DNA from: a virus
Lineage: Duplodnaviria > Caudoviricetes
Virus record (IMG/VR): IMGVR_UViG_3300033412_000476
Location: 1 to 64,000 of that record
Strand: one strand, 5' to 3'
DNA: 64,000 nucleotides
Shown here: one piece after another, positions 10,651 through 63,559 of the stretch
Layout of the letters: each line of letters starts with the position of its first letter
Position numbering within the stretch: position 1 is the stretch's first letter
Program-made: the position numbers and the translations under genes
Notes under the pieces: generated by a model
Database searches by the model: none
Seen by the model: the letters and a program-made list of their open reading frames with translations, nothing else
What the model was told of the DNA's origin: nothing

Positions 10651-11163
10651 GTGGGCAAGCCACTCGACACTGCGACCGTCGAGCGGCTGCTCGCGGCGTA
10701 TCGTCCGCTGCTTTTGCACGCTTGTAAGCGCCATCCGCAGCTCGACCATCACGAGCTCCGCGCCTGCTGGGAGGACGCCTTGCTCGAGGCGTACGGCCAG
10801 CTCGACGACCGCGCGAGCGAAGCGACGTGGGTGCGTAAGGTGTTCCGCTGGCGGCTCGCAGCCCTCGTCAAACGTACCCTTGCAGAACCGTCCGCACTCG
10901 GGGACTCGCTCGGTGAGGACCCGCAGGTGCTCAACGGCATCAACCCCGAGCAGGCGTTTTGGGGTGAGTCGGCCATGGCCGAAGTGCTGCGGATGCCGCC
11001 GTCGACACAAACGATCGTGATAGCCCATCTGCACGGTTACACGTATGATGAAGTCGCGGCGCAGGTCGGGCTCAGCCGCTCGACGGCGTACGAAAAAGCC
11101 ACCGACGCTATCGACAGACTCAGGAGGCGCTTTGGCCTTGGGCGAGACAAAGAGCGGACCTAG
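10651..11163 (+). CDS. ECF-type sigma-70 family factor
   Basis: Region 2-like (LLAAYRPLL...WEDALLEAY...TWVRKVFRWRL) and region 4 HTH (HGYTYDEVAAQVGLSRSTA); start uncertain. Confidence 0.78.
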   Translation: MGKPLDTATVERLLAAYRPLLLHACKRHPQLDHHELRACWEDALLEAYGQLDDRASEATWVRKVFRWRLAALVKRTLAEPSALGDSLGEDPQVLNGINPEQAFWGESAMAEVLRMPPSTQTIVIAHLHGYTYDEVAAQVGLSRSTAYEKATDAIDRLRRRFGLGRDKERT

Positions 11164-11422
11164 CTGCTACGTCGACCCAAACTCGCCGCCGAGCTCCTAT
11201 GCGGTTGCCGCGGTGTACGAGGGCGATCCCGCTGGCTGGGCCAAGGTGGCGACGGCGACCGCGCTGCGTGCGATCTTCGTCGCGCCTGGCCTCGCCGTCG
11301 CAGGCATCCGCGGGCGCAAGCTACTCGTTGGCTCGCTCGCCGCGAGCGCGGGCATCACGACCGCGCTCTTTCTGCTCTACGGCCTCAAGCGTGCAGGGGT
11401 GATGAAATGGAGTCCGCAATAA
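11045..11422 (+). CDS. Small membrane protein (start uncertain, overlaps the sigma gene)
   Basis: Two hydrophobic segments in the C-terminal half. Confidence 0.5.
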   Translation: MMKSRRRSGSAARRRTKKPPTLSTDSGGALALGETKSGPSCYVDPNSPPSSYAVAAVYEGDPAGWAKVATATALRAIFVAPGLAVAGIRGRKLLVGSLAASAGITTALFLLYGLKRAGVMKWSPQ

Positions 11423-11664
11423 AGCTCATCAAGCTGCAGGTTCGCACGTGCCCGCCACTCGATGACGCGAGCGTGTGCGAGCGCACGATCTATTTGAACG
11501 CAACCGTCGTAGCCAAGATCGAAGACCTGCGCGGCGAGCACATGCTGGATTGGTCGCATGTGTGTTTGCTCGCAGCTGAAGCCAAAGAGCTTGAGCTCAC
11601 CAACGGATTTTACACGCGGGTCTCACCATCGCAGCTCGCACAGAAGCTGCTCGGCATCGAGTAG
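11407..11664 (+). CDS. hypothetical protein
   Basis: In-operon ORF overlapping the previous stop region. Confidence 0.5.
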   Translation: MESAIKLIKLQVRTCPPLDDASVCERTIYLNATVVAKIEDLRGEHMLDWSHVCLLAAEAKELELTNGFYTRVSPSQLAQKLLGIE

Positions 11665-11682
11665 AACCCAGCCGTACGCGAC

Positions 11683-12186
11683 GTGGACAACGATCGTCTC
11701 GAGATTCCGCCGCGCAACGACTCAATCCGCGCGGCCGCAACACTCGTCTCGTCACCACGTGTTCGTAGCTTCGTGGGCACCGTCGCCGCGCTCGTCGTGC
11801 TGCCAGCTGCTGGCTGGGTCGGCGCCAAGCTCGACACCAAGCTCGAGGTCGACGCGCTGGTGCGCCAGAACGGAGAGTTCCAAGGCCGCATCTCCGCGCT
11901 CGAGAGCCAGCGCAAGGACATGCAGTCGCACATCGATGCGCTCTCCGCGCCCGTCACCGAAGGCGTCTCGCCTGGCGGTCCGATCACCCAACTACAGGCG
12001 CAGATGCGTGTGGCGCACCGCAACGCATTGCTTGCCTACGCGGTCGGGCTCGCCTTCGACAAGGACAAGGCCCGCAAGCGCGCGGAGGCTGAGAGGTTCG
12101 TCACGGCCTACAACAACCAGCTGCGGCGCGGCATCACGCCGGATGTGGCGGCTGAGACCACAATCGACAGCATCGCCCTGCCTTGA
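11683..12186 (+). CDS. Membrane-anchored coiled-coil protein
   Basis: TM FVGTVAALVVLPAAGWVGA followed by a heptad-rich segment. Confidence 0.62.
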   Translation: MDNDRLEIPPRNDSIRAAATLVSSPRVRSFVGTVAALVVLPAAGWVGAKLDTKLEVDALVRQNGEFQGRISALESQRKDMQSHIDALSAPVTEGVSPGGPITQLQAQMRVAHRNALLAYAVGLAFDKDKARKRAEAERFVTAYNNQLRRGITPDVAAETTIDSIALP

Positions 12187-12198
12187 ACTATCCCGCGG

Positions 12199-12247
12199 TT
12201 TCAGCGTAGTCTTCTGAGGTCGTCGTGGCTCCCGGACGATGCTGAAA
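12199..12247 (+). other. Intergenic stem-loop
   Basis: TTTCAGCGT...ATGCTGAAA outer stem enclosing a TCGTC/GACGA hairpin. Confidence 0.35.
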
Positions 12248-12264
12248 ACGGGGGCAACAAAATC

Positions 12265-12543
12265 ATGAAGCTGCGCGGTCTGAGCCAGGTGTCGATCCCG
12301 TCGCTGAACGACATTCAGCAGTCGGTCTCGCAGCAGCTCGACCGCTCGATCGTGCTGCCCGCCGAGCGCGTAGCGCAGTACAGCCTGCTCGGCGCGGCGA
12401 GCGCGGCCGCGCTGACGGCGATCATCGCGCTCAGCGTTCGCCGCCGGCCGACCCGCTCGGTCGGCGCGCTGCTTCTGCTGCTCGCTGCACCGGTCGCTGG
12501 CGCCGGCATCGGCGTGATGGCCGCAACCAAAAGCAACACCTAG
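12265..12543 (+). CDS. Small two-TM putative virion membrane protein
   Basis: N-terminal LRGLS motif; two TM segments. Confidence 0.65.
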   Translation: MKLRGLSQVSIPSLNDIQQSVSQQLDRSIVLPAERVAQYSLLGAASAAALTAIIALSVRRRPTRSVGALLLLLAAPVAGAGIGVMAATKSNT

Positions 12544-12555
12544 GAGTCTGCGATC

Positions 12556-12840
12556 ATGAGTCAGCTTGGTTGTGGCTGCGACGGCAAGAGAATGAACGGC
12601 TTCGGCCTCGGCGCGGTCGACCACAGCGGTTTCGTCACGCTCGGCATGACGCCGAGCGACACCGGCGGAAATCAGCTTTTGCGCGACGTCGCGATCGGCG
12701 TCGGCGCCTTCGCCGCGGTTGCGCTCTACGATAACAAGGCGCCCAAGAAGTGGCCCAAGCCTAAGAAGCTGTGGCAAGACCTCGTCTTCGCAGGTGGGCT
12801 CTACCTGCTCGGCACGTACGTCGCCAACCGCGTGATCTGA
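12556..12840 (+). CDS. Small two-TM putative virion membrane protein
   Basis: AGGAG RBS; MNGFGLG motif; two TM segments. Confidence 0.65.
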   Translation: MSQLGCGCDGKRMNGFGLGAVDHSGFVTLGMTPSDTGGNQLLRDVAIGVGAFAAVALYDNKAPKKWPKPKKLWQDLVFAGGLYLLGTYVANRVI

Positions 12841-12846
12841 GGTTTC

Positions 12847-13185
12847 ATGGAGACGCGTCACAAGTCGTCGCAGCCGCGCGAGTTCGTGCAGGTCGTCACG
12901 ATCGACCATCACGCGTTCCACCTGAAGATCACGACGACGCATCGCACGACCATCGAGCGCGACAAGCAGCGCATGCGGTTTCGTGTCCCTGGCGACGACG
13001 GTGATCACACAGCAGCAGTAATGGATGGCCCGGAGCGGGAAGTCCACGACGTCTTCCACACCGTGACGCTGAGCACCGGCAAGGGCGGCAAGGTCGAAGA
13101 GATCAAGCTCGACAACGCCGCGCTCATCGTGCTGATCGAGTCGCTGTCGAAAGCCTGCAGCAAGCCGCAGCCGGCCTACTACTGA
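12847..13185 (+). CDS. hypothetical protein
   Basis: GAGG RBS, in operon. Confidence 0.55.
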   Translation: METRHKSSQPREFVQVVTIDHHAFHLKITTTHRTTIERDKQRMRFRVPGDDGDHTAAVMDGPEREVHDVFHTVTLSTGKGGKVEEIKLDNAALIVLIESLSKACSKPQPAYY

Positions 13186-13424
13186 TGCCCTCGTATCTCA
13201 CACCCAAGCAAGAGCGCGCGTACGCTGCGATCAAGCAGTCGTGCCTCAAGCGCCGCTGCAAGAGCAAAGCTCGCTGTCGCTCGGCTTGCGCAGCGATCGG
13301 AACGAAGAAACTTCGCGTCGAGTGCTCGCGCGCCTGCGGCAAACCCAAGCGGTGCACGGCTGTCTGCAGCGCCACCGCGGGCCGCATCGTCAACGCGAAG
13401 TTCCGTCGACGCCGCAGGCGCTAG
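13185..13424 (+). CDS. Cys/Arg/Lys-rich basic protein (protamine-like)
   Basis: CLKRRCKSKARCRSAC...RRRRRR. Confidence 0.6.
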   Translation: MPSYLTPKQERAYAAIKQSCLKRRCKSKARCRSACAAIGTKKLRVECSRACGKPKRCTAVCSATAGRIVNAKFRRRRRR

Positions 13425-13425
13425 C

Positions 13426-13605
13426 GTGGAGATCGAGCACATGCACTGTCCGTGCGCGTGTGATCACCCACAGCCGTTTCATCTCGCCGACGATGACCGT
13501 GTGCCGCCCGAACTGCGCGGCAAATGGATCTGCGGCGCGTGCTACCACGATGACCGCAGTCTCTGCGTCATGTTGCCGTGCACGCCCGAGATCTGCGGCG
13601 AGTAG
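13426..13605 (+). CDS. 59-aa Cys/His-rich putative zinc-binding protein (absent from ORF track)
   Basis: Read by hand: VEIEHMHCPCACDHPQPFH...WICGACYHDD..LCVMLPCTPEICGE*. Confidence 0.5.
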   Translation: MEIEHMHCPCACDHPQPFHLADDDRVPPELRGKWICGACYHDDRSLCVMLPCTPEICGE

Positions 13606-13671
13606 CGACTGCGTTTGACAGGCGCCAGCGCGGGGTGCACGTGCGGACTAGCAACCACGGGAGGCGCCGCA

Positions 13672-13884
13672 ATGACCCTACTCGGACTTCTCATATACCT
13701 GATTGTGTGGGGCTGCGTGCTGTACGTGCTGTGGTGGGGTCTGGGCAAGATCGGCCTGCCTGAGCCGTTCGGCAAGATCGCGACGGTCGTACTCGTCGTG
13801 GTGACGGTGATCGTGCTGCTCAACATCCTGTTCGTGTTGGGCGGCCGGCCGCTCTTCGACGTGCCGTTCCCGCGGCTGCGCTGA
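13672..13884 (+). CDS. Small two-TM membrane protein
   Basis: GGGAGG RBS; LLIYLIVWGCVLYVLWW...IATVVLVVVTVIVLLNILF. Confidence 0.7.
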   Translation: MTLLGLLIYLIVWGCVLYVLWWGLGKIGLPEPFGKIATVVLVVVTVIVLLNILFVLGGRPLFDVPFPRLR

Positions 13885-13885
13885 G

Positions 13886-14548
13886 CTACTTGCGCTTGAG
13901 CTTGCGCCGCTTGCTCGGGGGCTTGACTGGCGTTGCTGCAGGTCCACCAGCGCTGAACAGGCCCATCAGCTTGCGACGTCGCGTTGGCTTGCGTAGGTAC
14001 ATCCACGCGCCGATGCTGAGCGCGAGCGCACCGAGGCCACCGCCGACGTACCACCAGAAGTACGGATTGCCGCCGACGAGCGAGCTCTGCGTCGGGATGG
14101 GCGCGTTCGCGAGCGCGGTGTCGACCGCGGTCACGAAGTCGTTCGTTTCCTTCTCGACGCGCTCGAGGTCTTGCCCCACAGCCATCAGCGTGTTGTCGTC
14201 GCTCGCCTGCGCAGCACGAGCGAAGAGCTGCGCGAGCTCGTTCTGGATGATCCCATACTGATTGAATAAGCCGAGCTCGACTGTGCCCGGCACAGCGGAG
14301 TCGATGAGCTTCTTGCTCGCCTTACGCGCGAGGTTGAGCGTGGAGGTGAAGCGCGCCTGCAGCGCGTTCGCCGCCTGCGTTGACGGCCCTGCAGCTGCTT
14401 GCTGCGGCTGCGCCGGCTGCACATCGACCGCGCGCGGATCCGCAGGCTCGGGCGAAGGCGTCGACGACGCGGATGCGACCGGCGGAAGTCCGAAGGGGCG
14501 GTTGCCGCCGTTGCCTGCCGGGAAGGGGATCACATTTCCGCTGGACAT
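13886..14548 (-). CDS. Tail-anchored helical protein with basic C-terminus
   Basis: Helical ectodomain, TM WWYVGGGLGALALSIGAWMY, then RKPTRRRK...KRRKLKRK. Confidence 0.65.
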   Translation of the reverse strand: MSSGNVIPFPAGNGGNRPFGLPPVASASSTPSPEPADPRAVDVQPAQPQQAAAGPSTQAANALQARFTSTLNLARKASKKLIDSAVPGTVELGLFNQYGIIQNELAQLFARAAQASDDNTLMAVGQDLERVEKETNDFVTAVDTALANAPIPTQSSLVGGNPYFWWYVGGGLGALALSIGAWMYLRKPTRRRKLMGLFSAGGPAATPVKPPSKRRKLKRK

Positions 14549-14600
14549 GGAACGCGAGGCTACCACGCGACCACGGGTTTGAGCTACCCTGGACGCGACG

Positions 14601-15371
14601 ATGGCCGCTCCCACCGGCAAAGGCATCTATGCCATGGGGCCGCAGTTGTACCCTGACGGTGATCCTGCAGGGTACGCGAAGCGGCTCGGCTGCCGTTTTG
14701 TCGCGCTGATCAACGGCTACGGCGTCCAGACGCACGCAGTCCGCGCCAAAGACCTGGGGCTGCAAACCTATTTGTGGAGCCCGCCGGAGACCTGGCACCC
14801 CGACAACTGGGCCGACACGTTCTCGCTGCAGATGGAGCGCGTGGAGTCACTCGGGCTCGCCGGACTCATCGCGGACGTCGAAGACGCGCCGATGTGGCTC
14901 GGCCAGCACGACGACGTGCAAGCGCTCGGCGAGGCGCTCAAGTACGCCAGCAAGAACTACTCGATCGGCTTCACGTCATTTCCGGGCTGGCCGTATGTAG
15001 ACGACCTAGCGAAGATCTTCGGCGGATCGGTCTGGTGCTCGCCGCAGTTGTATGGCGTGCGCGACCCCGGCACGCCGCAAGTCGTCGCTGCACGAGGCAA
15101 AAGCTGGAAATCAGCTTTCGGCGCAGCGCGGTACGTCCCGTCGATTGCCGCGTGGAACCGCTCAGCGCAAGCGCAGGCGACGTACCTGCAGGCGTTTAGC
15201 GACGCCTTCGCTGCGATCATGTGGCTGTCGCCCGCGACGCCCGTCATTGACAGCCCGCTCTACAACGTGCTCAAGAGCTGGCAGCCGCCGCGTGGCAAAC
15301 CGTTCGATGGTCGAGAGCTCTTCTCGACGGCGAAGACCGGGTTTCTCAAATCGATGAGGGTATTTTCATGA
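14601..15371 (+). CDS. Putative glycoside hydrolase (GH25/GH18-like barrel), candidate endolysin
   Basis: KGIY..., GLQTYLW, LIADVED (DxE), SPQLY pattern. Confidence 0.5.
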   Translation: MAAPTGKGIYAMGPQLYPDGDPAGYAKRLGCRFVALINGYGVQTHAVRAKDLGLQTYLWSPPETWHPDNWADTFSLQMERVESLGLAGLIADVEDAPMWLGQHDDVQALGEALKYASKNYSIGFTSFPGWPYVDDLAKIFGGSVWCSPQLYGVRDPGTPQVVAARGKSWKSAFGAARYVPSIAAWNRSAQAQATYLQAFSDAFAAIMWLSPATPVIDSPLYNVLKSWQPPRGKPFDGRELFSTAKTGFLKSMRVFS

Positions 15372-15616
15372 AAGCAGACGCAGGATTGATGACGCTGATC
15401 GTCGCGGGCGGCGCCTTCGGCGTCGGGTACGCGCTGGCCAAGATCTCACAGTCGCAGAGCGGCATTCCCGCTGGTGCAGTCGCGAGCGGCACGAGCGGTC
15501 TGTCGGCCGTGGTGCGCTTCCAGCCGGCGCGATCGCTCAGCGGTTGGGGCACACCTGGCTTCGGTCGCGGTCGCCACGGCACGGGCGCTGCGATCTACTG
15601 GCGCAAGGTCGCCTGA
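15368..15616 (+). CDS. Small N-terminal TM protein
   Basis: TM LIVAGGAFGVGYALA; LSGWG motif. Confidence 0.6.
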   Translation: MKADAGLMTLIVAGGAFGVGYALAKISQSQSGIPAGAVASGTSGLSAVVRFQPARSLSGWGTPGFGRGRHGTGAAIYWRKVA

Positions 15617-15619
15617 ACC

Positions 15620-15841: not shown

Positions 15842-15871
15842 TTTCGACGCTACGGCGCGGGAGATCGAGCG

Positions 15872-16636: not shown

Positions 16637-16641
16637 AGGTC

Positions 16642-16839: not shown

Positions 16840-16862
16840 CGCAGAGTGAGTCGCAGGCTGCT

Positions 16863-18810: not shown

Positions 18811-18857
18811 TCAGCTGAACCGCAAACGCGGCTAGGCAAGCCGCGAGGAGATCGACG

Positions 18858-45672: not shown

Positions 45673-45800
45673 GCCGGCACGCGAAGCTTTTCGCCTTTCT
45701 CACGTTGGGCTCTCCGGGCGACGCGTGCGTATCCACGGTGGGCTCCCCGAGAGCTCCGCTCCCGTACCGAGGCCAAAGCGGGAGCCCCGCGAGGGCTTTT
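45673..45800 (+). ncRNA. Candidate structured small RNA (about 130 nt)
   Basis: Promoter upstream, several stems, terminator at the 3' end, no ORF. Confidence 0.45.
45783..45800 (+). terminator. Short intrinsic terminator at the early/late convergence
   Basis: AGCCC-CGCGA-GGGCT-TTT. Confidence 0.55.
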
Positions 45801-46519
45801 CAGTCCCAGCCGGGCGGTAGCTGATCGACGGTCTCGTTCAGTCGCGCGGCCGCGTCGATGATGACCGCGATCGTCACGAAGTCGAGGCCCATCGCGCGCA
45901 GGTGCGCGACAGCGGCCTCCGGCGTGTCGACGCGCAGAATACCGGCTGCGGTCCACACGAGCACGGAGATGGCTTGGGGCTGTCCGCCCATCGGCGGAGT
46001 GTGCAGGCCGCGCAGACCGCGCAGGTGCGTTGCCCAGCGCGTGATCTCCGGTGAAACGAGCACGAGCTTCTGCTCTGCGAAGCTGCCGCGTGCGTTCGCA
46101 ACGGCGGCTTGCAAGAGGATCTCGCTCATGTAGATCGGCGAGAGCGCGTTGCACTGCGCGGCGCTCGACCGGAACGCTGCGGCCTCGCCCTCGATGCTGA
46201 AGTCGCAGACCTTCTGCAGGTGGTCCCAGTCGTGGACGGCGCGCGCCTTCCAGTTGGTCTGCGGATCCCAGAGCGGTGTGTCGCTGCCGCCCTTGTAGAC
46301 GTACATCGTGCCGGTCGACGCGATCTGATCGCGCATGTGCTCGAAGCTCTTGTACGGGTCGTGGTCGACGAACTGCACGCGGATCGGCAGCCGCTCGAAA
46401 GCCGCGTCGATGCGCGCCCGTTCAGCGCGAACCATCGCCTGCACTCGCGGGTCATGCGTGCTGTCGGGCGCGTTCTCGTACGCAAGCGCGAGCCGTTCGA
46501 TGTCAGCCGGACTAAGCAT
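45800..46519 (-). CDS. Zincin-like (HDxxH) domain protein, possibly virion-associated
   Basis: DPY...M...RAVHDWDH....F..EGE; LRGLRGL motif before the C-terminal domain. Confidence 0.55.
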   Translation of the reverse strand: MLSPADIERLALAYENAPDSTHDPRVQAMVRAERARIDAAFERLPIRVQFVDHDPYKSFEHMRDQIASTGTMYVYKGGSDTPLWDPQTNWKARAVHDWDHLQKVCDFSIEGEAAAFRSSAAQCNALSPIYMSEILLQAAVANARGSFAEQKLVLVSPEITRWATHLRGLRGLHTPPMGGQPQAISVLVWTAAGILRVDTPEAAVAHLRAMGLDFVTIAVIIDAAARLNETVDQLPPGWD

Positions 46520-51123: not shown

Positions 51124-51522
51124 TCAGCGGGTGCGGCGCTTGATGCGATCGCGCACGGCCCACAGCATACCGCCAAGGCCGCCGACGACGAGCACCGCGC
51201 CTAGGCCCTTTTGGGTGTACCACGTCGCCATACCCGTGCTGACACTCGTCAGGCCGGCAGCGAACGCGGCACCCTTGATGGCGCCCTCACGGTGATCGCT
51301 GGCCACCCAGCCCAGCAGCGCGCCACCCAGGCCCGCGCCTGCGAGCGTCGCAGCCGCGTAGAGCGGAGAATCGACCGCCGTAGCCGCGCCAAGCCGGCTG
51401 CCGCCACGCACGCCGTGGAAGGGGATGCCGGTCGCGTCGGCGGGCATCAGCAGCGTCTGCATGGTGCCAAGGCCGCCAAGACCCGCACCGGGTGCACCAT
51501 CGAAGTTTCCGGCGGGCAGCAT
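51124..51522 (-). CDS. Three-TM putative virion membrane protein
   Basis: GAGGAG RBS; LGGLG and RLGA motifs; basic tail. Confidence 0.65.
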   Translation of the reverse strand: MLPAGNFDGAPGAGLGGLGTMQTLLMPADATGIPFHGVRGGSRLGAATAVDSPLYAAATLAGAGLGGALLGWVASDHREGAIKGAAFAAGLTSVSTGMATWYTQKGLGAVLVVGGLGGMLWAVRDRIKRRTR

Positions 51523-51868: not shown

Positions 51869-52831
51869 CTACGAGACCATGATGTAGCCGGCCATGCCGA
51901 TGCACAGCACGTCCGGCAGCTCATCGACCAAGGCGCGGACGTCGACGGTGACGCCCTCGCCGGGGTTCCAGATCATCCCGTCACCGGGGAACTGGTGGAC
52001 GACCGCGCGGCCGGTCGAGAGCCCGAGCAGCGTCGCTTGCGGGTAAGGCGCGTTGATGTTCTGCGGGCCGACGAACCAGTCGGCCTGCGTGCCGTTGCCG
52101 ACCTGCCGGATCTTGATCCGGATGCGACCGATCGCGCCGGTCGGATCGGACTGGTCGATGGCCGCACCGACCGTGACCGTCATATCGGTGATGAGAATCG
52201 GCTCGCTGCCACTGTTGGTGAAGTCGGGCGAGGTGAAATCGAGCGGCTGCGTGGTCTCGAGCTGCACCGAGCCCGTCAGGATGTACGGCCGGTGCGAGAG
52301 CGCGCCGATGCCGTGGAACGCGACAGCGACCGGCACCGCGTCCGAAGGATCCGAAGCGTCCTGCAGCTGAACGCGAATCTGAAACGTGTCGCGCACGGCG
52401 AGCACGAGCGGCTGACCGCAAGCCACGAAGTCCCAGTGCGCGTTGCCCGCGGAGAACGCCTCGGGGGCAGCGACGACCTTGTTGCCCCAGAGCGTGAGCG
52501 GGAGCGGCTCGCGGTTCATGTAAAACTGATTGTGGAACTGAAACCGCACGCCGATGCGGCCGACGTCGAGCGGGTTGGCCACCGACGGCTGCGCGTCGGT
52601 CGTCAGATAGCGCACGGCCGCCACGATGTGCGTGAGCCGGATGGGAAACTGCTCGCCGTTGTAGAACACCTCGGGTTGGCCCGAGGTGATGATGTTCCGA
52701 TCCGAGTTGAGGGTGATCTCGTCGAAGAACAGCCGCGGCTCGTTGATGATGCCCTTGCTGAGCAACGTCTTTCCGAGCTGGATGACGTAGTCGAGGTATT
52801 CGGAGGTTCCCTTGGGCGGCAGTTGCGGCAT
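51869..52831 (-). CDS. Double jelly-roll-like capsid protein candidate A
   Basis: Internal duplication: FYNGEQFPIRLTHI...VAFHGI and FTNSGSEPILITDM...IGMAGY. Confidence 0.55.
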   Translation of the reverse strand: MPQLPPKGTSEYLDYVIQLGKTLLSKGIINEPRLFFDEITLNSDRNIITSGQPEVFYNGEQFPIRLTHIVAAVRYLTTDAQPSVANPLDVGRIGVRFQFHNQFYMNREPLPLTLWGNKVVAAPEAFSAGNAHWDFVACGQPLVLAVRDTFQIRVQLQDASDPSDAVPVAVAFHGIGALSHRPYILTGSVQLETTQPLDFTSPDFTNSGSEPILITDMTVTVGAAIDQSDPTGAIGRIRIKIRQVGNGTQADWFVGPQNINAPYPQATLLGLSTGRAVVHQFPGDGMIWNPGEGVTVDVRALVDELPDVLCIGMAGYIMVS

Positions 52832-52837
52832 GGTGAC

Positions 52838-53971
52838 TTAGCCCTCGATCGTTGCAAAGCCGTTGAACGAAACGCCGATGTGATAGACCGGCGTCTCATC
52901 GGTCGGCACGGCGTCCATTTCGAGCTCGACGCTCAGCTGACCATCCGGCGGGAGCGTGATCGGTTCCGGCAGATCCATCACGAGCGCGGGCGTGATGGCG
53001 TCGAACACCAGCGCGAGCGGCGCACCGGGCCGCCACCAGTAGGTTTGCGAGCCGGTGCCGATCGTGCGAATGCGCGTGCCGGTGCGGAGCGCGAGCGGTG
53101 ACGGCCTTGCGCTCGCGCCAAACTGGGCGACGAGCCGCTGATCGTAAAGCCGCTGATCGATCGCAACGCGCAGGTCCGTGATCATCGAGCTGCCGTCGCG
53201 CGCGTCGTTCTGCCCAATGAAGCTGTTAGGGTTGCTGCTGCTACCGCTCGGAAAGCGCGAGAGTGGCGGCCACCAGCTGTCCGAGGTCGGAATGACGACC
53301 GGCGTACCGACACCGTAGCCGTCCGGCGGGTAGGGCCAACGCTCTTCCGGATTGAACTCGGTGATGTTTCCGGTGAACGGAAACAGATTTCGCAGGCACT
53401 GCCGCGCCGATCCGGGCCACAGACCGCCCTGCTGCTGATAGAGCATCCACGCGGTCGCGAGCGCGTCTTCAGCAACGCCGCTCACCCCTACGCCGGGGAA
53501 CGGCGTGTGCGCGGACAAGTCCCACTCGAGCGAGCCTTGCTTGGGCACGATGAGCGGGTTGTCGAGCCGCAGCATCGACTGACCCCACATCGAGCTCGGC
53601 AAGTACGTCGCCACCTCGCCCGCATCGCCCGCGATCAGATCGTTGGGCGGCTGCGCGGTCGGTTTTGGCGCCATCGACGCGCAGTCGATGAACTTGCGAT
53701 CGTTCCAGTGAAACTGCTGCGGCGAGCTGATCTTCAGCCGCGCGCGATTGAGTACTGCGGAGGTCTCGTTGTAGCCGACGCCAGAAACGTCGGTCGGCGT
53801 CCCCTGCAGCAAGTAGTTGACCGCGCAGAGCGCGATGCGCTTGAGCGTGATCGGGTGGCGCTCGCCGTTGTAGAAGTGCCGGCGCGGGAGCTCGAGCTGC
53901 ACAGGCGCCGCGTGTGCGTCCACGTTCGCGATGGACCAAAGCGAGCGCGGCTCGTAGTAAAGGCCGGCCAT
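52838..53971 (-). CDS. Double jelly-roll-like capsid protein candidate B (paralogue of A)
   Basis: FYNGERHPITLKRI, ITDLRV.ID, RIRTIGTGSQTYWW, VSFNGF align to A. Confidence 0.55.
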   Translation of the reverse strand: MAGLYYEPRSLWSIANVDAHAAPVQLELPRRHFYNGERHPITLKRIALCAVNYLLQGTPTDVSGVGYNETSAVLNRARLKISSPQQFHWNDRKFIDCASMAPKPTAQPPNDLIAGDAGEVATYLPSSMWGQSMLRLDNPLIVPKQGSLEWDLSAHTPFPGVGVSGVAEDALATAWMLYQQQGGLWPGSARQCLRNLFPFTGNITEFNPEERWPYPPDGYGVGTPVVIPTSDSWWPPLSRFPSGSSSNPNSFIGQNDARDGSSMITDLRVAIDQRLYDQRLVAQFGASARPSPLALRTGTRIRTIGTGSQTYWWRPGAPLALVFDAITPALVMDLPEPITLPPDGQLSVELEMDAVPTDETPVYHIGVSFNGFATIEG

Positions 53972-54535: not shown

Positions 54536-55255
54536 CTACGCGACCGGACGGCGCTTCAGACCGTCGAGGTAGATGCGCATGCGCCAGTCCTGATCGACCA
54601 GGAGAGCACCCGCGGGCGTGCGGAAGCGAACCTTGATCGTCCGATCGCTCGAGATGAGGATCGGCATGTTGAGCAGGCGCTGGTTCTTCTTCGGCCCGAG
54701 CTCGCCGCCCGTGCCGTAGTTCAGGTTCAGCGACGTCGCGCCGCCGTTGGCGATGGTCAGCGCGTCACCGCTGCCCGTCGCGTAGGCGCCCACGCCCTGC
54801 CCGACGTACGCCAGCGGAGACTGGAACATCGGCTTGCTGATGTTGCTGCCGACCATCAGCTCGAGCAGCGCTTGCTGCTTCATCAGCGCGTGGTTGGTGC
54901 CGCTGAAGATCGGTGCCACCGCTTCGTCGTCGTTGGGCGGGTTGGTGTACACCGAGTCTTGGTTGTTGCTGCCTTCGATCGCGAACAGCTCGTAAGTCAC
55001 GCTGAAGACGATCGCCGCTTCGTCGTGGTTGAGCTTGCTCTTGACCACCTGGTTGGTGTCGGCCTGCGTCGCCATGCGTCGCCCGGTCGAGATCTGACCG
55101 GCCTGCGGCACCTGGCCGCCGACGACGTATGAGAACGCGTACAGGTCGACCTGTGCGCCAGCTGCGCCTTCGATGGTCGAGAACAGCGGCCAGTGCAGCC
55201 ACTCCTCGATCCGGAAGACCGAGCCGTCGGGCATCTTGAAGGTATCGATCGCCAT
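54536..55255 (-). CDS. Single jelly-roll major capsid protein candidate 3
   Basis: MPDG...EW..PLFST, DTN....L..., P.....V.F, RIYLDG.KRRP; AAGGAG RBS. Confidence 0.6.
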   Translation of the reverse strand: MAIDTFKMPDGSVFRIEEWLHWPLFSTIEGAAGAQVDLYAFSYVVGGQVPQAGQISTGRRMATQADTNQVVKSKLNHDEAAIVFSVTYELFAIEGSNNQDSVYTNPPNDDEAVAPIFSGTNHALMKQQALLELMVGSNISKPMFQSPLAYVGQGVGAYATGSGDALTIANGGATSLNLNYGTGGELGPKKNQRLLNMPILISSDRTIKVRFRTPAGALLVDQDWRMRIYLDGLKRRPVA

Positions 55256-55280
55256 GACCTGCTCCTTGTGCCTTTCGGCC

Positions 55281-55979
55281 TCACGCCACCGGACGGCGGC
55301 GTTCTCCATCGAGGTAGGTGCGCAGGCGAATGCGCGAGTTGGTGGCCAAGTTCAGGTTCGTCACCTGACCCGGGCCCGGAAGGAAGACGATGCCGAAGGC
55401 TTCGCCGCCCGCGATCTGCAGCGGCGAGGCGAGCTCGCGCGTTGCTTCCGTCGCGGGGTAGCCGTTGTTCGCGGGCACCTCGCCGTTGCCACCCGCGCCG
55501 CTCACCTGCGAGCGACCACCGCTGATCGTGTAGAAGATGCCCGTACCCGACGGCCAGTACGACAGCGGCGAGTTGGTGTACTGCTTGACGCCCGCGATGA
55601 CGAACTGCATCACGAGGTCACGCTGGATGCGGAGCATGTCCGGCAGCGGCACGCCCGGGGGATCGCAGTCGGGGAACCGGTCGACGCTCGCCGCCGGCCC
55701 GATCTTGGTCACCTCCACGCCGATGGCGCGGATGGTGATCTGCTCGTTCTCGGGCAGCTTGCCGCCCTCGCCCTGCAGATTGGTGTCGATGATGGTCGAC
55801 TGCCGCGGTCCCACGCTGCCGGGGACCACGCCGCCTTGACCGTACGAGAACGCGATGATGCCGCTGTTGAAGCTGCCCGCCGCGATCTCGACCGTGCTGT
55901 AGAGCGGCACGGCCATCGTCCACTCCCCGGGAATGACCACATTCCCGTTGGGGAGCCGAACCTTGTCGATTTGTGCCAT
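55281..55979 (-). CDS. Single jelly-roll major capsid protein candidate 2
   Basis: LPNG...EW...PLYSTVEI, DTNLQGEGGKLPENEQITIRAIGV, RTYLDG.RRRP. Confidence 0.62.
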   Translation of the reverse strand: MAQIDKVRLPNGNVVIPGEWTMAVPLYSTVEIAAGSFNSGIIAFSYGQGGVVPGSVGPRQSTIIDTNLQGEGGKLPENEQITIRAIGVEVTKIGPAASVDRFPDCDPPGVPLPDMLRIQRDLVMQFVIAGVKQYTNSPLSYWPSGTGIFYTISGGRSQVSGAGGNGEVPANNGYPATEATRELASPLQIAGGEAFGIVFLPGPGQVTNLNLATNSRIRLRTYLDGERRRPVA

Positions 55980-56009
55980 GGGATTGCTCCTGTGCCCTTC
56001 GCCTTCGGT

Positions 56010-56756
56010 TCAGCTCGTGGGCCGCTTGTAGAGGCCGTCGAGGTAGACGCGAACGCGTGCGAAGCGCGCGTCGTCGATGCCGCCCTCCTCGCCGCCTTCG
56101 ATGCCCAGCTCACCGAGCTCGATGCCCTGCCCGGTGCCGTCGTCGGAGTAGTTCAGCAGCAAGCGGAACTTCTCCTGACCACCGATGTGCTGCGGGACCA
56201 CGTTGGTCCGCACGGCCTGTTGCGACGGCAGGCCCGCGAAACCGTAGTTCGCGATCGTGCCCTCTGCGCTCGGTGCGAGCATGCCCGCGCCGAAGTTGTA
56301 GTAGCCGAAGCCCGCCATCGCGTACTTCTTCTGGCTGATCTCGAGCGTCATCAGCAGACGTAGCGCCATGACGCTGAGCATCAGCGGCGTCGGCGCAGGT
56401 TCACCGTTGCTGAGCGCCGCAGGCGCGCTGAAGTCCGGCGCGTCCTCGTCCGTGACGTGCCGACGGAACACCTCGGGGCGGATGGCGTAGACCATCAGCT
56501 CTTCGGTGTCGGCCATGGCGCCGGGGTTGGCCATGTTGGTGTCGAGCTCCGTCGCCGTCCGCTGGTTGGCGATGGCCACCGGCGCAAACGCCGGAACCGG
56601 ATCGCCCGCGGTGTACTGGAACAGCGACATCTCCTGAGTGTTGGTGCCGCTCAGGATCTCGACGGTCGAGAACTGCGGACGATCAGTCCAGTCGACGAAC
56701 GCGATCACGCGCCCGTCGGCCAGCTTGATCTCCACGATCTGCGAGTTGTCACCCAT
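56010..56756 (-). CDS. Single jelly-roll major capsid protein candidate 1
   Basis: LADG...DW..PQFSTVEI, DTNM..PG.M...EL.VYAI, RVYLDG..KRP. Confidence 0.62.
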   Translation of the reverse strand: MGDNSQIVEIKLADGRVIAFVDWTDRPQFSTVEILSGTNTQEMSLFQYTAGDPVPAFAPVAIANQRTATELDTNMANPGAMADTEELMVYAIRPEVFRRHVTDEDAPDFSAPAALSNGEPAPTPLMLSVMALRLLMTLEISQKKYAMAGFGYYNFGAGMLAPSAEGTIANYGFAGLPSQQAVRTNVVPQHIGGQEKFRLLLNYSDDGTGQGIELGELGIEGGEEGGIDDARFARVRVYLDGLYKRPTS

Positions 56757-56784: not shown

Positions 56785-57354
56785 TCAGCGCATCCGGAAC
56801 GTCGGGGTACCGAACGCGCCCGGAATGACCGCGCTCAGGCCGCTGAGGTTGACGGACTCACCGCCGCCCGGGCCGTAGCTGCCAGCGGCTGCCGGCTGCA
56901 TCACGACTGCGCCCATACCTCGGCGCGCGCCGTTCATCTGCTGCGCGACGATGGCGCCCATGCCGCGAATGCCGCTGGTGCCAGCAGGCATCATCGACAT
57001 GCCGCTCATCATCGCGGGCAGCTTGGTCGCTGCGAACGCGATCGCGGAACCGGCCGCGGCTGCGATGCCGGCGGGCTTGCTCGTGGTGACCCACAAGATC
57101 CCGCTGACCAGCAGACCGAGAACGAGTCCGACTGCGTCGGCGTTGTTGACGACCGGCGCGTTCTCCGCGGTCGGTGCAACGAGTTGCTTGACCCCGACCG
57201 CACCGAGAATCGTCGTGGCGCCGCCGAGTGCCGCAGGTCCGAAAGCACCGAGAGTGCTCGACGGATTGCTGAGCCGCTCGGCGCCGCTCAGGCGCTTGAC
57301 GGTGATGATCGAACCAAGGCGGCGACGCCGCCGTCCGTGCCTTCTCCGTGCCAT
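56785..57354 (-). CDS. Virion membrane protein with Arg-rich N-terminus
   Basis: MARRRHGRRRRRLGS; three hydrophobic segments; IRGMGA, RRGMGA, LSGLS motifs. Confidence 0.68.
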   Translation of the reverse strand: MARRRHGRRRRRLGSIITVKRLSGAERLSNPSSTLGAFGPAALGGATTILGAVGVKQLVAPTAENAPVVNNADAVGLVLGLLVSGILWVTTSKPAGIAAAAGSAIAFAATKLPAMMSGMSMMPAGTSGIRGMGAIVAQQMNGARRGMGAVVMQPAAAGSYGPGGGESVNLSGLSAVIPGAFGTPTFRMR

Positions 57355-57708: not shown

Positions 57709-58133
57709 CAGCGCCTCCGTCGTCCTTTGCGGCGGTGGGTCCAGACCCAAGCGCCGATTGCCGTCGCAGCCAGTCCCACACCCACGGCCCAACCAAAGCC
57801 GCGAAGTTGAACGAGCTCGCCCGCGTGTTGGCGGTCCTTGCTCGTCCGATTGAGCACGTCATGCAGCTTCGCGTTCAGCGTGTCGGCTCGCTGGCGCCAC
57901 GCACTGAGCGACGGCGCGTCACCAGGCAGCGTGATCGTGTCGCTCTTCAAGAGCGAGATCTGCTGCGCGAGTGAGTCGAGCTCGTTTTTGTAGCCGACGA
58001 CGTCGACGCCCTGGTCGAGCAGAATCGACAGATTCTGCACGGCCTGGATGTGCAAATCCTCGAGCCCCGCGACCGTTTCGTTGAGATCAGTCTGCGCGGT
58101 TGCGTCGAGAACGCCGATGGCGTGAGAAAGCAT
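57708..58133 (-). CDS. Tail-anchored helical-bundle protein
   Basis: LRGFG, then TM, then HRRKGRRRR. Confidence 0.65.
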   Translation of the reverse strand: MLSHAIGVLDATAQTDLNETVAGLEDLHIQAVQNLSILLDQGVDVVGYKNELDSLAQQISLLKSDTITLPGDAPSLSAWRQRADTLNAKLHDVLNRTSKDRQHAGELVQLRGFGWAVGVGLAATAIGAWVWTHRRKGRRRR

Positions 58134-58138
58134 CGCTG

Positions 58139-58942
58139 CTACCTGCGCCTTCGCTTGCCGCGGTTGATCCACCAGACGATCGTACCGCCGAGCCCGACGA
58201 CGCCGAGCCCGACCGCGAGCAGCGGTACACGACTGGCGACGCGGGTACCGACGACGTGGATGTCCTCGCCGGTGAAATCTGTTTGCGTCTCGAGCGGCGC
58301 GAGCTCTTGATCGGTCAGGTGCTGAATCGGCGTGCTGGGGTCCGGCGCGTTGAGCACATCCGCCACCGGCGCAGCGATGCCGCCTGGCACCGTCGACATG
58401 GTCGTCGAGATCACCTGCGGCGGCCCTACAGGCGTTCCGGTCGGCGTGTTGACCGGCACGGTGTTGCGGATGACCGAGCCGCTGCTGTTGATGACAGCCT
58501 GCGCGTCGGCCGCGTCCGAGCCGTCGCCTGGAATGGGCAGCGGCTCGTTCAGGACGCTCGTCACCGGCGCAGCGCTCGGCGGAGTCAGCGCATCGATGCC
58601 GTCCTTGTTCTGCGCGGCCCACACGGGCATCGCGCTCGCCTTGCTTGGCGGCACGGAGATGCCGGCGGCGCCACAGATGATCGTGCACAGCGCGGACGAA
58701 GTGTTGGGTCCGTACTTGCCGTCTTCCACCAGCTTGACCCAGCGCCGGCTGCTGCCGAGCTTCTTGAGCAAGCTGCTGATGATCGGCCCGTTCGCGTTCC
58801 ATGCCTGCTGGTACGCGAGGACATCGGGGCTCGCCGCGCTGCTGCCAGTCACGGCGAGCGCCCGAATCATGCGCTGAGCAAAGCCCCGCATCTGAACGAC
58901 CATGTCGTTCTCGTGCGGAGCGATTTGTACCGCGGCGGCCAT
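58139..58942 (-). CDS. Tail-anchored protein with PG_binding_1-like N-terminal domain
   Basis: VLAYQQAWN...LVEDGKYGPNTSSAL; Pro-rich linker; TM plus RGKRRRR. Confidence 0.65.
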   Translation of the reverse strand: MAAAVQIAPHENDMVVQMRGFAQRMIRALAVTGSSAASPDVLAYQQAWNANGPIISSLLKKLGSSRRWVKLVEDGKYGPNTSSALCTIICGAAGISVPPSKASAMPVWAAQNKDGIDALTPPSAAPVTSVLNEPLPIPGDGSDAADAQAVINSSGSVIRNTVPVNTPTGTPVGPPQVISTTMSTVPGGIAAPVADVLNAPDPSTPIQHLTDQELAPLETQTDFTGEDIHVVGTRVASRVPLLAVGLGVVGLGGTIVWWINRGKRRRR

Positions 58943-59301: not shown

Positions 59302-59913
59302 TCAACGCTTTCGACAGACGAACTTTTTGCAGACCTTGCGGCCCTTGATCTTGCGATAGCCGCCGGTGCACACCGCGCGACCGCCGTTCTTGCACTTGCG
59401 CTTGCAGACGACCTTGCGGTTGCCCGCGCTTCGAGCGCCCGCGCGCGTGTTCGAAGTGAGCACGCCGTGCTTGTCCCAGCAGAGCTTGCGCCGAACGGTC
59501 TTGCCGCTCTTGAGCGTCATCTTGACGTTCTTGCAGCGCGCAGTGCGGCCGGGCTTGCGCGAGACGCCTTTGCGACGCGGCTTCTCTTCGACGGTATCGG
59601 AGAAGAGCTCGAGCTGCGCGCCTTCACGCACGCCCGCGCCCATCAAACGCGCGGCGCCAGCATCGCGAGCGCGAACGACGCTCCACTTGACGACGTCGTA
59701 GCGATCGAGACCGAGATCGTTTGCGAGCACACGCGCCGCGCGCTCGGGGCGTTCGCCTGGACCAAGCTCCGCGGCGTGCTTGTCGCCGTAGCGATCCTGC
59801 ACGACAACGAAACGGCTCTTCGCGGCGGCTTCACCGAAGCCGTAGCCGGCGGGCGCGGCCGGTAGACCACGGAAGCCGTACGGAACGAACCCATATGCGG
59901 GCTGTAGTGCCAT
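59302..59913 (-). CDS. Protein with C-terminal Cys/Lys/Arg modules
   Basis: C-terminus VCTGGYRKIKGRKVCKKFVCRKR is paralogous to 59138-59287. Confidence 0.65.
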   Translation of the reverse strand: MALQPAYGFVPYGFRGLPAAPAGYGFGEAAAKSRFVVVQDRYGDKHAAELGPGERPERAARVLANDLGLDRYDVVKWSVVRARDAGAARLMGAGVREGAQLELFSDTVEEKPRRKGVSRKPGRTARCKNVKMTLKSGKTVRRKLCWDKHGVLTSNTRAGARSAGNRKVVCKRKCKNGGRAVCTGGYRKIKGRKVCKKFVCRKR

Positions 59914-59973: not shown

Positions 59974-60660
59974 CTAGCGGTGTCGTCGCCGTTTCGTCAA
60001 CTTCAACATGCCTCGCTTGCGCGCGTAGGTGAGACCTACCGCGAAGAAGAACCCGATGCCGACGAGGCCACCGAGCTGCCGCAGGTAGCCTGAATCCGGA
60101 ACAGATTCGGGCGTGTCTGCGACGGAATCACCCGACGGCACCGTGACCGTTGGCGTCGGTCCACCGTACGGCGGCACGGTTGGCGTGGACGGCGTGGAAT
60201 ATGGCGGCGTGCTTTGCTGCGGAGGCGTCGTCGGCGTACTCGGCGTCGACGGCGTCTGTCTTGGTGCAGGGCACTGTTGTTCCACATAGCCCGCCCACTG
60301 TGCTGCGCCAGCAGCCGCGGTGGTCTTGCCCGCAGCGATGTTCTGGCAGATCTGATCGAAAACGTGTTTGTGCGCCGGGCTGTTGATGCAGGTCTTGACG
60401 TATGCCGGCGCCTGCGCGAGCAGCGAGCTCCACATCGAGTTGCAAGCGTTGGTCACTTCTGCGGTCGGTGACGTCGACGTCGTCGGTGCTGTCGTCTTCG
60501 GTGGAGTTGTCGTCTTGGGCGGCGTGATGACCTGTACATCACCTTGCGTCGGCGCGTAGTAGCCGCGGCTCCGCTGAAGCTCCGTCAGCGCAGGCTGCCG
60601 AATGTTCGTTGCAACCGCGGTGGCTGGCGTCGACGCGCCCAAGCGAACAACGACGTGCAT
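59974..60660 (-). CDS. Tail-anchored protein with Cys-helical domain and Pro/Thr linkers
   Basis: C...W......QIC...G...W.GY.E domain; TM plus KRRRHR. Confidence 0.65.
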   Translation of the reverse strand: MHVVVRLGASTPATAVATNIRQPALTELQRSRGYYAPTQGDVQVITPPKTTTPPKTTAPTTSTSPTAEVTNACNSMWSSLLAQAPAYVKTCINSPAHKHVFDQICQNIAAGKTTAAAGAAQWAGYVEQQCPAPRQTPSTPSTPTTPPQQSTPPYSTPSTPTVPPYGGPTPTVTVPSGDSVADTPESVPDSGYLRQLGGLVGIGFFFAVGLTYARKRGMLKLTKRRRHR

Positions 60661-60669
60661 GGCTGGCTC

Positions 60670-62598: not shown

Positions 62599-62607
62599 AG
62601 CGGCGCC

Positions 62608-63030
62608 TTACCGGCGACGCGGCTTGGCGTAGCCCTGCACGGCCGCGACGCCGAGCGTGATGAGCGGCATGAAGATGCCGGCGAGGCCATAGCCGACGGT
62701 CGCCAGCGTCTTGCCGCCCGAGCGCTTGTAGCCGTGGTAGCCGCCGACGAAGGCGCCGAGGATGTGCGCGGTCGTCATCGCGATCGAGCTCTGCACGCTC
62801 GGAACCGCGAGCGGCATGCCGAACGTTTCTTGGCTCCACTGGTTGGCGCGAGACATACGCGCCGCGACCTGATCGACCGGCCCGCCGTTGTCGACCGAAC
62901 CGTTGCTGCCGTTGACCGCCGCCGTCGTCATGATCTGCGCAGGCGGCTGAGGCACCGAGTTGTTCGGCAAGGGGTCGAACGCCGGCACCGAGGGGTCCTG
63001 CAGCGCAGCGATCGTCGTGGAATCTGCCAT
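62608..63030 (-). CDS. Membrane protein, YHGY.R family paralogue 1
   Basis: GAGGAG RBS; GGYHGYKRS...G..G.F.P......QGYAKPRRR. Confidence 0.68.
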   Translation of the reverse strand: MADSTTIAALQDPSVPAFDPLPNNSVPQPPAQIMTTAAVNGSNGSVDNGGPVDQVAARMSRANQWSQETFGMPLAVPSVQSSIAMTTAHILGAFVGGYHGYKRSGGKTLATVGYGLAGIFMPLITLGVAAVQGYAKPRRR

Positions 63031-63046
63031 GGGGTCGTCCTTCTCC

Positions 63047-63559
63047 TCAGCGCCGACCGCGCGGCCGCGCGTAACCTTGTGCGATCGAAACGATGGGCGT
63101 GACCACCGGGAAGATCGCGCCCATGAAGCCCCAGCCGACGCCGGCCATCACCGATCGGTCTCGCCGGTAGCCGTGGTAGGCCGAGATGCCGGCACTCACG
63201 AGCGAGAGCGCAGCCGTCGCGATGACTGCGCCAAGCTGCACCGTCGGGCTCGACTTCTGCCAAGGAAACGTCGGCAGACCGGGCAGGTTCATCGCGACCG
63301 GATCGCCGGAGCTCTGCGTGACGTCGACCATCGGATCGCTCGCCGAGGTCGCGAGTACCTGATCACCGACAGCGCCGAGGCCGTGAAGCAGCCGAGCGGT
63401 GCCGAACAAGCCGCCGAGCGTCGTCTGTCGAAGCAGGTTTTGCGGCTGCTGCGGTGTGACGCGGCGAGGCTGCCCCATCCAGTTGGTGCGCACCATGGGC
63501 TCGAACGCCGCGCCCAGGCGACCCAGCGTCATAATCTCGGTTGGCGCCATGTACGGCAT
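63047..63559 (-). CDS. Membrane protein, YHGY.R family paralogue 2
   Basis: SAYHGYRR.RS..GVGWG..G.IFP...P...AQGYARP; LHGLG motif. Confidence 0.68.
   Translation of the reverse strand: MPYMAPTEIMTLGRLGAAFEPMVRTNWMGQPRRVTPQQPQNLLRQTTLGGLFGTARLLHGLGAVGDQVLATSASDPMVDVTQSSGDPVAMNLPGLPTFPWQKSSPTVQLGAVIATAALSLVSAGISAYHGYRRDRSVMAGVGWGFMGAIFPVVTPIVSIAQGYARPRGRR

Follow-up and report, generated by a model that had tools for sequence, protein, structure and literature searches.

A glycine-centred motif in the late proteins of a large phage and a LapG-like cysteine protease that may recognize it

We know of no maturation protease in bacterial or archaeal viruses that combine a jelly-roll capsid with an internal membrane, and proteolytic maturation is seen as characteristic of related viruses of eukaryotes: adenoviruses, virophages and giant viruses. 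Here we analyse a stretch of 64,000 nucleotides (hereafter the window) of the IMG/VR virus record IMGVR_UViG_3300033412_000476, whose late proteins repeatedly carry a short motif, [LMI]-x-G-[LFM]-G-(A)-(V/I/L), that may be cleaved by a LapG-like cysteine protease encoded in the same genome outside the window. Among the closest described systems, the adenovirus protease (AVP, or adenain) cuts at IVGL|G and QRGF|G (PMC4246237), while the Cys-His-Asp protease LapG (PMC4359373) acts on LapA at the bond joining Ala108 to Ala109 (PMC3032545). Prp removes 13–14 N-terminal residues from non-homologous proteins of phage 80alpha at a shared motif (PMC5744158), and SSIP-1 (Salisaeta icosahedral phage 1) has a PRD1–adenovirus type architecture with two capsid protein types (PMC6356626).

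The genome studied here resembles each of these systems in part. The real AVP sites match the phage motif (PMC4246237); in both cases a hydrophobic residue stands upstream and a glycine or other small residue at the presumed cut, in several unrelated core or membrane-active proteins. The phage also encodes very basic core-like proteins, and a relative of its protease occurs in the SSIP-1 virion, just as AVP is packaged. It differs in having no detectable clan CE protease, no enrichment of the AVP consensus, an enzyme of transglutaminase (papain-like) fold and a bacterial host, and cleavage at the phage sites is our proposal. With LapG and the bacterial transglutaminase-like cysteine proteases (BTLCPs), the phage enzyme shares a Transglut_core domain and an invariant Cys-His-Asp triad, and LapG acts site-specifically between small residues (PMC3032545); LapG, however, is periplasmic and controlled by LapD and cyclic di-GMP, whereas the phage protein has about 200 residues and, by hydropathy, no signal peptide. 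Prp, too, is a cysteine protease that acts on short leaders at a shared motif (PMC5744158), and several phage copies lie at residues 3–35, but Prp is a host enzyme of another fold that cuts F|A, whereas the enzyme considered here is viral, and many of the motif copies occupy internal positions. SSIP-1 shares the protease relative (gp34) and a late module rich in membrane proteins, but its genome is half the size, its gp34 has a C-terminal transmembrane (TM) helix absent from the enzyme studied here, and SSIP-1 shows no enrichment of the full motif; no other virion protein shared between the two was detectable.

A refined motif in the late proteins

The window covers the initial 64 kb of one IMG/VR contig, which is 87,267 bp long with about 65% G+C. 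Bases 1–200 recur, with one mismatch, at 87068–87267, and this 200-bp overlap of the contig ends makes the genome a complete unit of 87,067 bp rather than a fragment, contradicting the CheckV completeness estimate of 66% (IMG/VR labels the contig linear). A gene model built from codon usage contains 157 closely packed genes, with late genes on the minus strand at 45800–64202 (genome numbering; the block runs past the window edge) and in a second, plus-strand block at 11138–21788. Almost all late proteins were searched against Pfam, PHROG and NCBIfam, and none of these had a relative there. The late protein 51869–52831 has 78 homologs, many of them on contigs of 77–89 kb, and one homologous copy is a provirus in a Gemmatimonadota chromosome. 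For comparison we used syntenic late blocks from eight contigs among these homologs, a complete IMG/VR relative with terminal repeats (G001) and counterparts of the plus-strand block from three contigs; gene coordinates were taken from the database at three loci, and the final set of early proteins excludes one relative, G005. A literature search found no paper describing this phage group.

Across the late proteins of ten related genomes, the tripeptide GLG occurs 103 times against 60.4 expected (1.7-fold, z 4.9), with GFG (43 versus 27) and GMG (22 versus 12) likewise in excess, whereas the control tripeptides GLL, LLG, LGG and GGL occur at expectation and LGL is depleted. The flanking positions, which were not used to select sites, are also biased: over 113 non-redundant G[LFM]G sites of late proteins, L, M or I occupies position −2 in 33% of cases against a local background of 16% (p 6e-6), and Ala occupies position +1 in 29%, the background there being 14% (p 2e-5). 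This signal is stronger outside TM segments than within them, reaching 32% for L/M/I and 33% for Ala at 85 extramembrane sites from 18 families. Early proteins (205 from the window genome and G001) show no bias at either position (15% and 6%), a wider early-protein set shows no tripeptide excess, and the density of G[LFM]G is 1.01 per 1,000 residues in early proteins versus 2.85 in late ones. The longer form L-x-G-L-G was noticed while instances in relatives were being tabulated; L.GLG ranks first among its 30 orderings, with 13 carrier families against 4.4 expected, a count matched by 0 of 300 shuffles. We looked for a consensus extending beyond +1/+2 and found none. Carrier proteins often hold at least two copies, the earliest at residue 3 and others past residue 300. 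The refined motif is real and late-protein-specific, being absent from the early proteins of these genomes. It is found in the extramembrane, mostly variable arms of small late proteins from no fewer than 18 unrelated families, its carriers being membrane-anchored and core-like. Its late-only distribution across genomes that differ in composition argues against a DNA-level cause such as an in-frame nucleotide motif.

The motif replaces a looser one. The original prediction, made from the sequence of the window, suggested that [MIL]xG[LFMW][GSA] recurs across putative virion proteins as an adenovirus-like cleavage or sorting tag. All the strings it listed are present in the sequence, but LRGLRGL (in the open reading frame (ORF) at 45800) and RRGMG depart from the pattern as written, and the ORF cited as 57708–58802 is a composite whose real gene is 57708–58133. 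In late proteins the pattern is enriched 2-fold over a composition-matched background: 47 late proteins contain 15 instances, against 6.3 in full shuffles (p 0.001) and 7.2 in shuffles within 12-residue blocks, which keep local composition fixed (p 0.007), and the 110 other proteins of the gene model contain 6 where about 7 are expected. Since the pattern had been written after its instances were seen, we compared it with all 120 orderings of its residue classes, and here the pattern failed. It ranks fourth, with the scramble [LFMW][GSA]G[MIL]x more enriched (17 versus 7.3); the probability that some ordering attains its z-score is 0.26; and in eight held-out genomes (the window and its nearest relative set aside) it ranks 40th of 120 by carrier families (p 0.26). 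Most of its sites are not conserved in homologues, which the prediction itself had named as counting against the idea: in-register retention is 1/5 for MRGFA, 1/4 for the LGGLG of 51124, 1/8 for MAGFG, 0/8 for IRGMG and 0/8 for LSGLS. Placement at N-terminal leaders or TM junctions holds for individual sites, four lying at residues 3, 13, 15 and 18 and one directly ahead of a TM helix, but the N-terminal bias is not significant (8 versus 5.2, p 0.13). The loose pattern is no specific signal, and what remains of a shared motif is the tighter, late-specific core G-[LFM]-G with its biased flanks.

The sites in the window that bear on the refined motif are the following.

51466..51480 (-), LGGLG, residues 15–19 of the tail-anchored protein 51124–51522; matches the refined core, in register only in the relative L003
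57277..57291 (-), LSGAE, residues 22–26 of the protein 56785–57354; the window's degenerate version of a site fixed in this family, placed after GS[IV]IxV[RK]
56911..56970 (-), IRGMG (56956–56970) and RRGMG (56911–56925) in the same protein 56785–57354; two copies of a repeat, G-h-G-A-[IV]-V-x-[EQ]
12592..12606 (+), MNGFG, then LGAV; residues 13–17 of the small protein 12556–12840
63374..63388 (-), LHGLG, residues 58–62 of the membrane protein 63047–63559; refined core, followed by AV
57792..57806 (-), LRGFG, residues 110–114 of the protein 57708–58133; abuts a C-terminal TM helix and polybasic tail
12271..12285 (+), LRGLS, residues 3–7 of the two-TM protein 12265–12543; in the one ortholog found, the same place reads LPGLG
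15536..15550 (+), LSGWG, in the protein 15368–15616; retained in L030 and VVNRF in L031
58877..58891 (-), MRGFA, residues 18–22 of the protein 58139–58942; retained in the closest relative only

Judged from aligned orthologs, the 51124, 56785 and 12556 families show the type of conservation expected for a short linear motif. Each 51124 ortholog has at least one copy of L-x-G-[LI]-[GSR] in its variable N-terminal arm, at shifting positions, and at the main site of this family the window reads RLGAAT (51379–51396), the motif copy having been lost. The fixed site of the 56785 family reads VSGLG, MRGLG, MSGLG and LKGLG in four divergent genomes (G001, L007, L008 and L009) and LSG[AVT]E or LNGSE in the window's clade; the G-h-G-A-I-V core of its repeat is retained in 9–10 genomes, with T, V, S or G at what was the first position of the loose pattern. 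Orthologs of 12556 read R-FNGLG-AI and K-MSGLG-AV, so that [KR]-h-[NS]-G-L-G-A-[VI] is conserved downstream of a CGC motif. At the LHGLG site, orthologs of 63047 have LSGLA, LGKLA and GGFRG, and the family has a second h-x-G-h site upstream (TLGGLF, IMGGMG, TLNGLG). LRGFG corresponds to LRGFG, LRGLV, LRGLY and VTGLL, with QLRG[FL] in 4/5 and the final glycine not retained. The counterparts of MRGFA beyond the closest relative (MRFHT, LRLIE, RNRAA, VETAA) suggest that this string is probably a chance occurrence.

A LapG-like cysteine protease and what it may cut

The original prediction placed the maturation protease either beyond the window or in a zincin-like protein within it, which directs attention to two genes.

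75301..75906 in the genome (L001:11301-11906), outside the window (-), LapG-like cysteine protease of 201 amino acids (aa) with a Transglut_core match
45800..46519 (-), the protein taken for zincin-like; it has HDWDH, not HExxH

The second of these was rejected: besides HDWDH in place of HExxH, it has no Pfam match and no meaningful PDB relative, and L003 alone among the relatives carries it. Outside the window, by contrast, there is indeed a conserved gene for a predicted protease. The 201-aa protein matches Transglut_core (PF01841) with an E-value of 1.9e-4 and 22.1 bits, the cutoff being 23, and a majority of its 74 homologs (38–70% identity) lie above the Pfam threshold; the G004 homolog scores 23.3 bits. 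Residues C122, H156 and D175 are invariant across 29 aligned members. By profile, the closest solved relative is 4U65 chain E, the LapG of P. fluorescens (E 1.3e-4), with which the Cys and His align; the resemblance covers about 75 residues, and the phage protein has a conserved N-terminal region of its own with two near-invariant cysteines. A simple hydropathy test found no hydrophobic N-terminal segment that would mark a signal peptide. The gene is present in 4/5 IMG/VR relatives examined, including both complete ones; in G001 a gap of 1.6 kb separates it from the end of the late block, which has the same orientation. The enzyme is free-standing in the window genome, and in G004 and G005 the domain forms the C-terminal part of an ORF of at least 667 aa (L019:64-2067), the remainder of which has no known domain.

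Among 50,697 GenBank phage records, the sole one with a relative of this protease is SSIP-1. Its gp34 shares 30% identity over the catalytic core, retains the motifs of the triad and has a TM helix at its C terminus; it is annotated 'structural protein' and is the first gene of the structural cluster. The protease is a conserved core gene, predicted from its alignment to be a catalytically intact transglutaminase-fold Cys-His-Asp enzyme nearest to LapG. Its virion association in the sole cultured relative fits a packaged maturation protease and equally an entry or lysis enzyme.

A search for proteases of the adenovirus type had been proposed as a check. A six-frame search of the complete 87-kb genome returned no match at E<=10 to adenain (Peptidase_C5, PF00770) or Ulp1 (Peptidase_C48, PF02902), although a very divergent member could escape it, and the sensitivity of this screen is such that it missed the weak Transglut_core match of the same genome. 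Nor did the complete genome contain prohead proteases of the S78 or ClpP type. Neither form of the adenain consensus, (M/I/L)XGX-G or (M/I/L)XGG-X, is enriched: window late proteins contain 22 instances of [MIL]xGxG against 15.4 expected (p 0.07) and 13 of [MIL]xGGx against 15.2, with 37 versus 32.8 and 33 versus 32.4 carrier families in the held-out relatives. A true clan CE system homologous to those of adenoviruses, polintons and virophages would be in keeping with the jelly roll of 51869–52831, whose best matches are capsid proteins of the PRD1–adenovirus lineage, and with LRGFG, MNGFG and IRGMG, which suit the type-1 consensus, but with both enzyme and consensus failing to appear we regard it as close to excluded.

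We instead propose, with a probability of roughly 0.35, that the refined motif is the recognition and cleavage site of the virus-encoded LapG-like cysteine protease. The protease would trim leaders from, or cut the arms of, small membrane and core proteins at particle maturation, and it would work in adenovirus-like fashion, cutting at a bond flanked by small residues, a few positions downstream of a hydrophobic one. As the enzyme is unrelated to adenain, maturation of this kind would be convergent, not homologous. If so, a conserved protease and a shared site in a bacterial member would make two questions testable, namely how large membrane-containing particles are assembled when 87 kb of DNA must be condensed without a recognizable packaging motor, and whether such viruses acquired cleavage-based maturation on more than one occasion; SSIP-1 is culturable, which makes the role of the protease directly testable.

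Several observations count against cleavage. A blind scan of all 4-of-5 residue patterns did not single out L.GLG, whose z of 4.0 compares with a null maximum averaging 7.1. The reversed string GLG.L is also somewhat enriched (10 families versus 13 forward); outside TM segments the reverse of L.GLG has 11 instances in 8 families against 20 in 10 forward, and the broader [LMI].G[LFM]G is nearly equal both ways (32 in 14 families forward, 30 in 13 reverse), so the directional signal from counts alone is modest. The late-versus-early contrast is also one between membrane or disordered proteins and globular enzymes, structural class being unmatched. Part of the copies lie in TM helices or in probably folded proteins, and the window's own proteins lack the motif at the two best conserved family sites (LSGAE and RLGAAT). 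In the SSIP-1 late module the full motif is not enriched (3 versus 1.5) and only G[LFM]G is mildly so (13 versus 7.6, p 0.04). A virion-borne papain-fold enzyme could serve entry or lysis instead, and the Ala-Val/Ile that follows the motif looks as much like a β-strand as like P′ residues.

The first of these points feed the view that the motif has no discrete function and is a by-product of a structural class (Gly/Ala/Leu-rich, membrane-proximal and disordered) combined with post hoc choice of pattern. The loose pattern does no better than its scrambles and fails in held-out genomes, in-register conservation is poor for most window sites, and on the stricter [LMIFV]xGLG subset outside TM segments the flank bias is weak (Ala 9/32, p 0.016 uncorrected). 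Against it, the 12-residue block shuffles already fix local composition; GLG is in excess while tripeptides of the same residues are at expectation or depleted; the flanks are biased although they had no part in site choice; and the signal is stronger outside than inside TM segments. We rate such a by-product as almost as likely as cleavage. Were it correct, degenerate glycine/hydrophobic patterns in membrane-rich proteomes would need scramble, reverse and hold-out controls.

The resemblance to a β-strand leads to a different function, in which the motif is left uncleaved and docks: a Gly-flanked hydrophobic strand or turn in a flexible arm would bind the jelly-roll shell proteins, or other such arms, perhaps as an extra strand at the edge of a sheet; minor-protein arms bind capsomers in PRD1 and adenovirus in much this way. 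The motif statistics speak for docking as they do for cleavage. The preference for Ala and then Val/Ile/Leu after the second glycine speaks for it, as does the frequent presence of at least two copies per protein, and the twice-repeated G-h-G-A-I-V-x-E of 56785, found in all genomes, suits multivalent binding to repeated shell subunits. It would, however, leave the conserved protease without a proposed substrate, and the turnover of positions within variable arms is no less in keeping with a site in a linker than with a fixed docking strand; we consider docking almost as likely as cleavage.

That many carriers are membrane proteins, and that at least six late proteins end in a sorting-signal-like TM helix and polybasic C terminus, could also suggest that the tag is recognized not by a viral enzyme but by host machinery, be it a peptidase or a system for membrane insertion or sorting, a reading for which the host protease acting on phage 80alpha at a shared N-terminal motif offers a precedent (PMC5744158). 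Prepilin-type, lipobox and Tat readings were ruled out by inspection, as there is no hydrophobic stretch after the motif, no lipobox Cys and no RR-x-F-L-K, and motif position is highly variable, between residue 3 and positions past 300; we rate a host-read tag as very improbable. Cleavage by the LapG-like enzyme is our single best guess. The refined motif and the protease encoded beyond the window merit a bench test, and the loose motif and the zincin are to be dropped.

The virion module and the kind of virus

The virion module in which these proteins are encoded may be a more important find than the motif. Its principal features, beyond the motif carriers listed above, are these.

51869..53971 (-), two paralogous β-proteins of 320 aa (51869–52831) and 377 aa (52838–53971), one family by clustering
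54536..56756 (-), three tandem paralogs of 239, 232 and 248 aa, candidate major shell proteins whose codon bias is the strongest in the genome
57436..57708 (-), 90-aa Lys/Arg/Cys-rich protein, conserved in L003–L005; by composition a candidate DNA-condensing core protein
51124–51522, 57708–58133, 58139–58942, 59974–60660, 62608–63030, 63047–63559 and 13886–14533, proteins with a TM helix and polybasic tail

AlphaFold (AF2) with 45 homologs gave a confident all-β model of the 320-aa protein, with a predicted local distance difference test score of 93.8. Its best structural matches are jelly-roll domains in capsid proteins of viruses that contain a membrane, namely those of PBCV-1 and EhV-201 (Z 8.8), the Faustovirus major capsid protein (8.1), the capsid protein of HHIV-2 (7.9) and PRD1 P3 (7.6), with about 120 residues aligned and Z 7–8 being common background for the structure-search tool; Foldseek returned only jelly-roll matches of low template modelling score. 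Membership of the jelly-roll fold class is well supported by this model, from which we infer a capsid role. For the three tandem paralogs, the atlas search gave leads only, to clusters of PM2 P2 and PRD1 P3 (0.76–0.77) and to Capsid_N of nucleocytoplasmic large DNA viruses (template modelling score 0.40–0.42). Their family has no profile match to the 320-aa family and none to PDB sequences, and an atlas search with the 642-aa protein found no match.

At least seven late proteins have a C-terminal TM helix followed by a polybasic tail (KRRRR, RRKGRRRR, KPRRR), an architecture that is conserved in orthologs and stands out more than the motif does. Their appearance is that of tail-anchored membrane proteins, and their basic ends could face the DNA. 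A second protamine-like Lys/Arg/Cys-rich protein is encoded at 59302–59913, and the membrane protein 56785–57354 has a polybasic N terminus. Such basic core candidates could bear on how DNA is packed without a recognizable packaging ATPase: no FtsK/HerA- or A32-type enzyme (PF01580, PF04665) was matched, no late protein contains a Walker A motif, and the P-loop proteins of the genome comprise only helicases and one AAA_24 protein that resembles Sak4.

The late block encodes many small TM proteins, from which we infer an internal membrane. In the complete genome, terminase, portal and HK97 capsid families (PF03237, PF04860, PF05065) gave no match, although very divergent versions could escape, and the large late proteins have no Pfam, PHROG or NCBIfam match to tailed-phage hallmarks. 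A jelly-roll late protein, many small membrane proteins and no detected tailed-phage hallmarks recall PRD1, PM2, P23-77 and HHIV-2; the differences are a genome of 87 kb against at most about 44 kb in those cultured phages, five jelly-roll-type or candidate shell proteins, and the lack of an FtsK/HerA-type ATPase noted above. Within the 50,697 phage records, megablast with the late block and tblastn with the jelly-roll protein and with one shell paralog gave no match. These viruses possibly constitute an undescribed group of very large tailless phages.

The fullest form of our proposal is of a family of tailless phages with genomes of 77–89 kb, probably infecting Gemmatimonadota, in which a jelly-roll capsid and a membrane are matured by a LapG-like, virion-associated protease shared with SSIP-1; its targets would be small membrane proteins and core proteins that condense DNA, cut at sites of the type [LMI]-x-G-[LFM]-G|A, an adenain-style maturation arrived at convergently and in a virus with no recognizable packaging ATPase. 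As a whole, this combination is speculative and we rate it as improbable, its parts having the strengths given to each above.

A further link to SSIP-1 was seen outside the late block. A segment of its gp43, a structural protein of 2319 aa (L034 26863-33822), is 37% identical (E 3e-27) to the N6-methyltransferase-like protein of the window at 24562–25368, and a methylase-like domain thus lies inside a giant SSIP-1 virion protein.

Other sites and neighbouring genes

Two strings in the window were dropped as candidate sites.

56304..56318 (-), MAGFG, inside the abundant paralog 56010–56756, within the conserved block [AG]G[FL][GA]YYN
52016..52030 (-), LLGLS, inside the jelly-roll protein 51869–52831, with L268 and G270 invariant in 45 homologs

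The first belongs to a conserved block of a probably folded protein, in which the first position is M in 2/9 only and otherwise E, S, R or Q, and the second is a structural element in a confidently folded region of the model.

The plus-strand block at 10651–17177 opens with a sigma-70 region-4-like protein (10651–11163) and contains several small one- or two-TM proteins. Its counterparts in relatives carry SLT and M23 peptidase genes, where the window has a 256-aa protein (14601–15371), and the block is probably a lysis cassette. Because it holds SLT/M23 lysis enzymes in relatives, the carriers 12265, 12556 and 15368 may not be virion proteins.

Downstream, 17896–21788 encodes four tandem paralogs of 304–328 aa with a common MS-x-N-type N terminus, and the neighbours 47608–49017 and 49018–50046 share the N terminus M[SA]GANPTAIGSV. 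Both sets are probably exchangeable host-recognition or spike proteins built on a common anchor.

The replication set is typical of phages and comprises a RecD-like helicase, an exonuclease, the AAA_24 protein, DUF669, a PolA–UDG fusion and ThyX, as well as a UvrD-like helicase, a RecA-like protein, Dam and an integrase-family protein. In the fusion (5140–8109), a uracil-DNA-glycosylase-superfamily domain is joined to the N terminus of a family A DNA polymerase, and the adjacent ThyX (8109–9269) has a long N-terminal extension.

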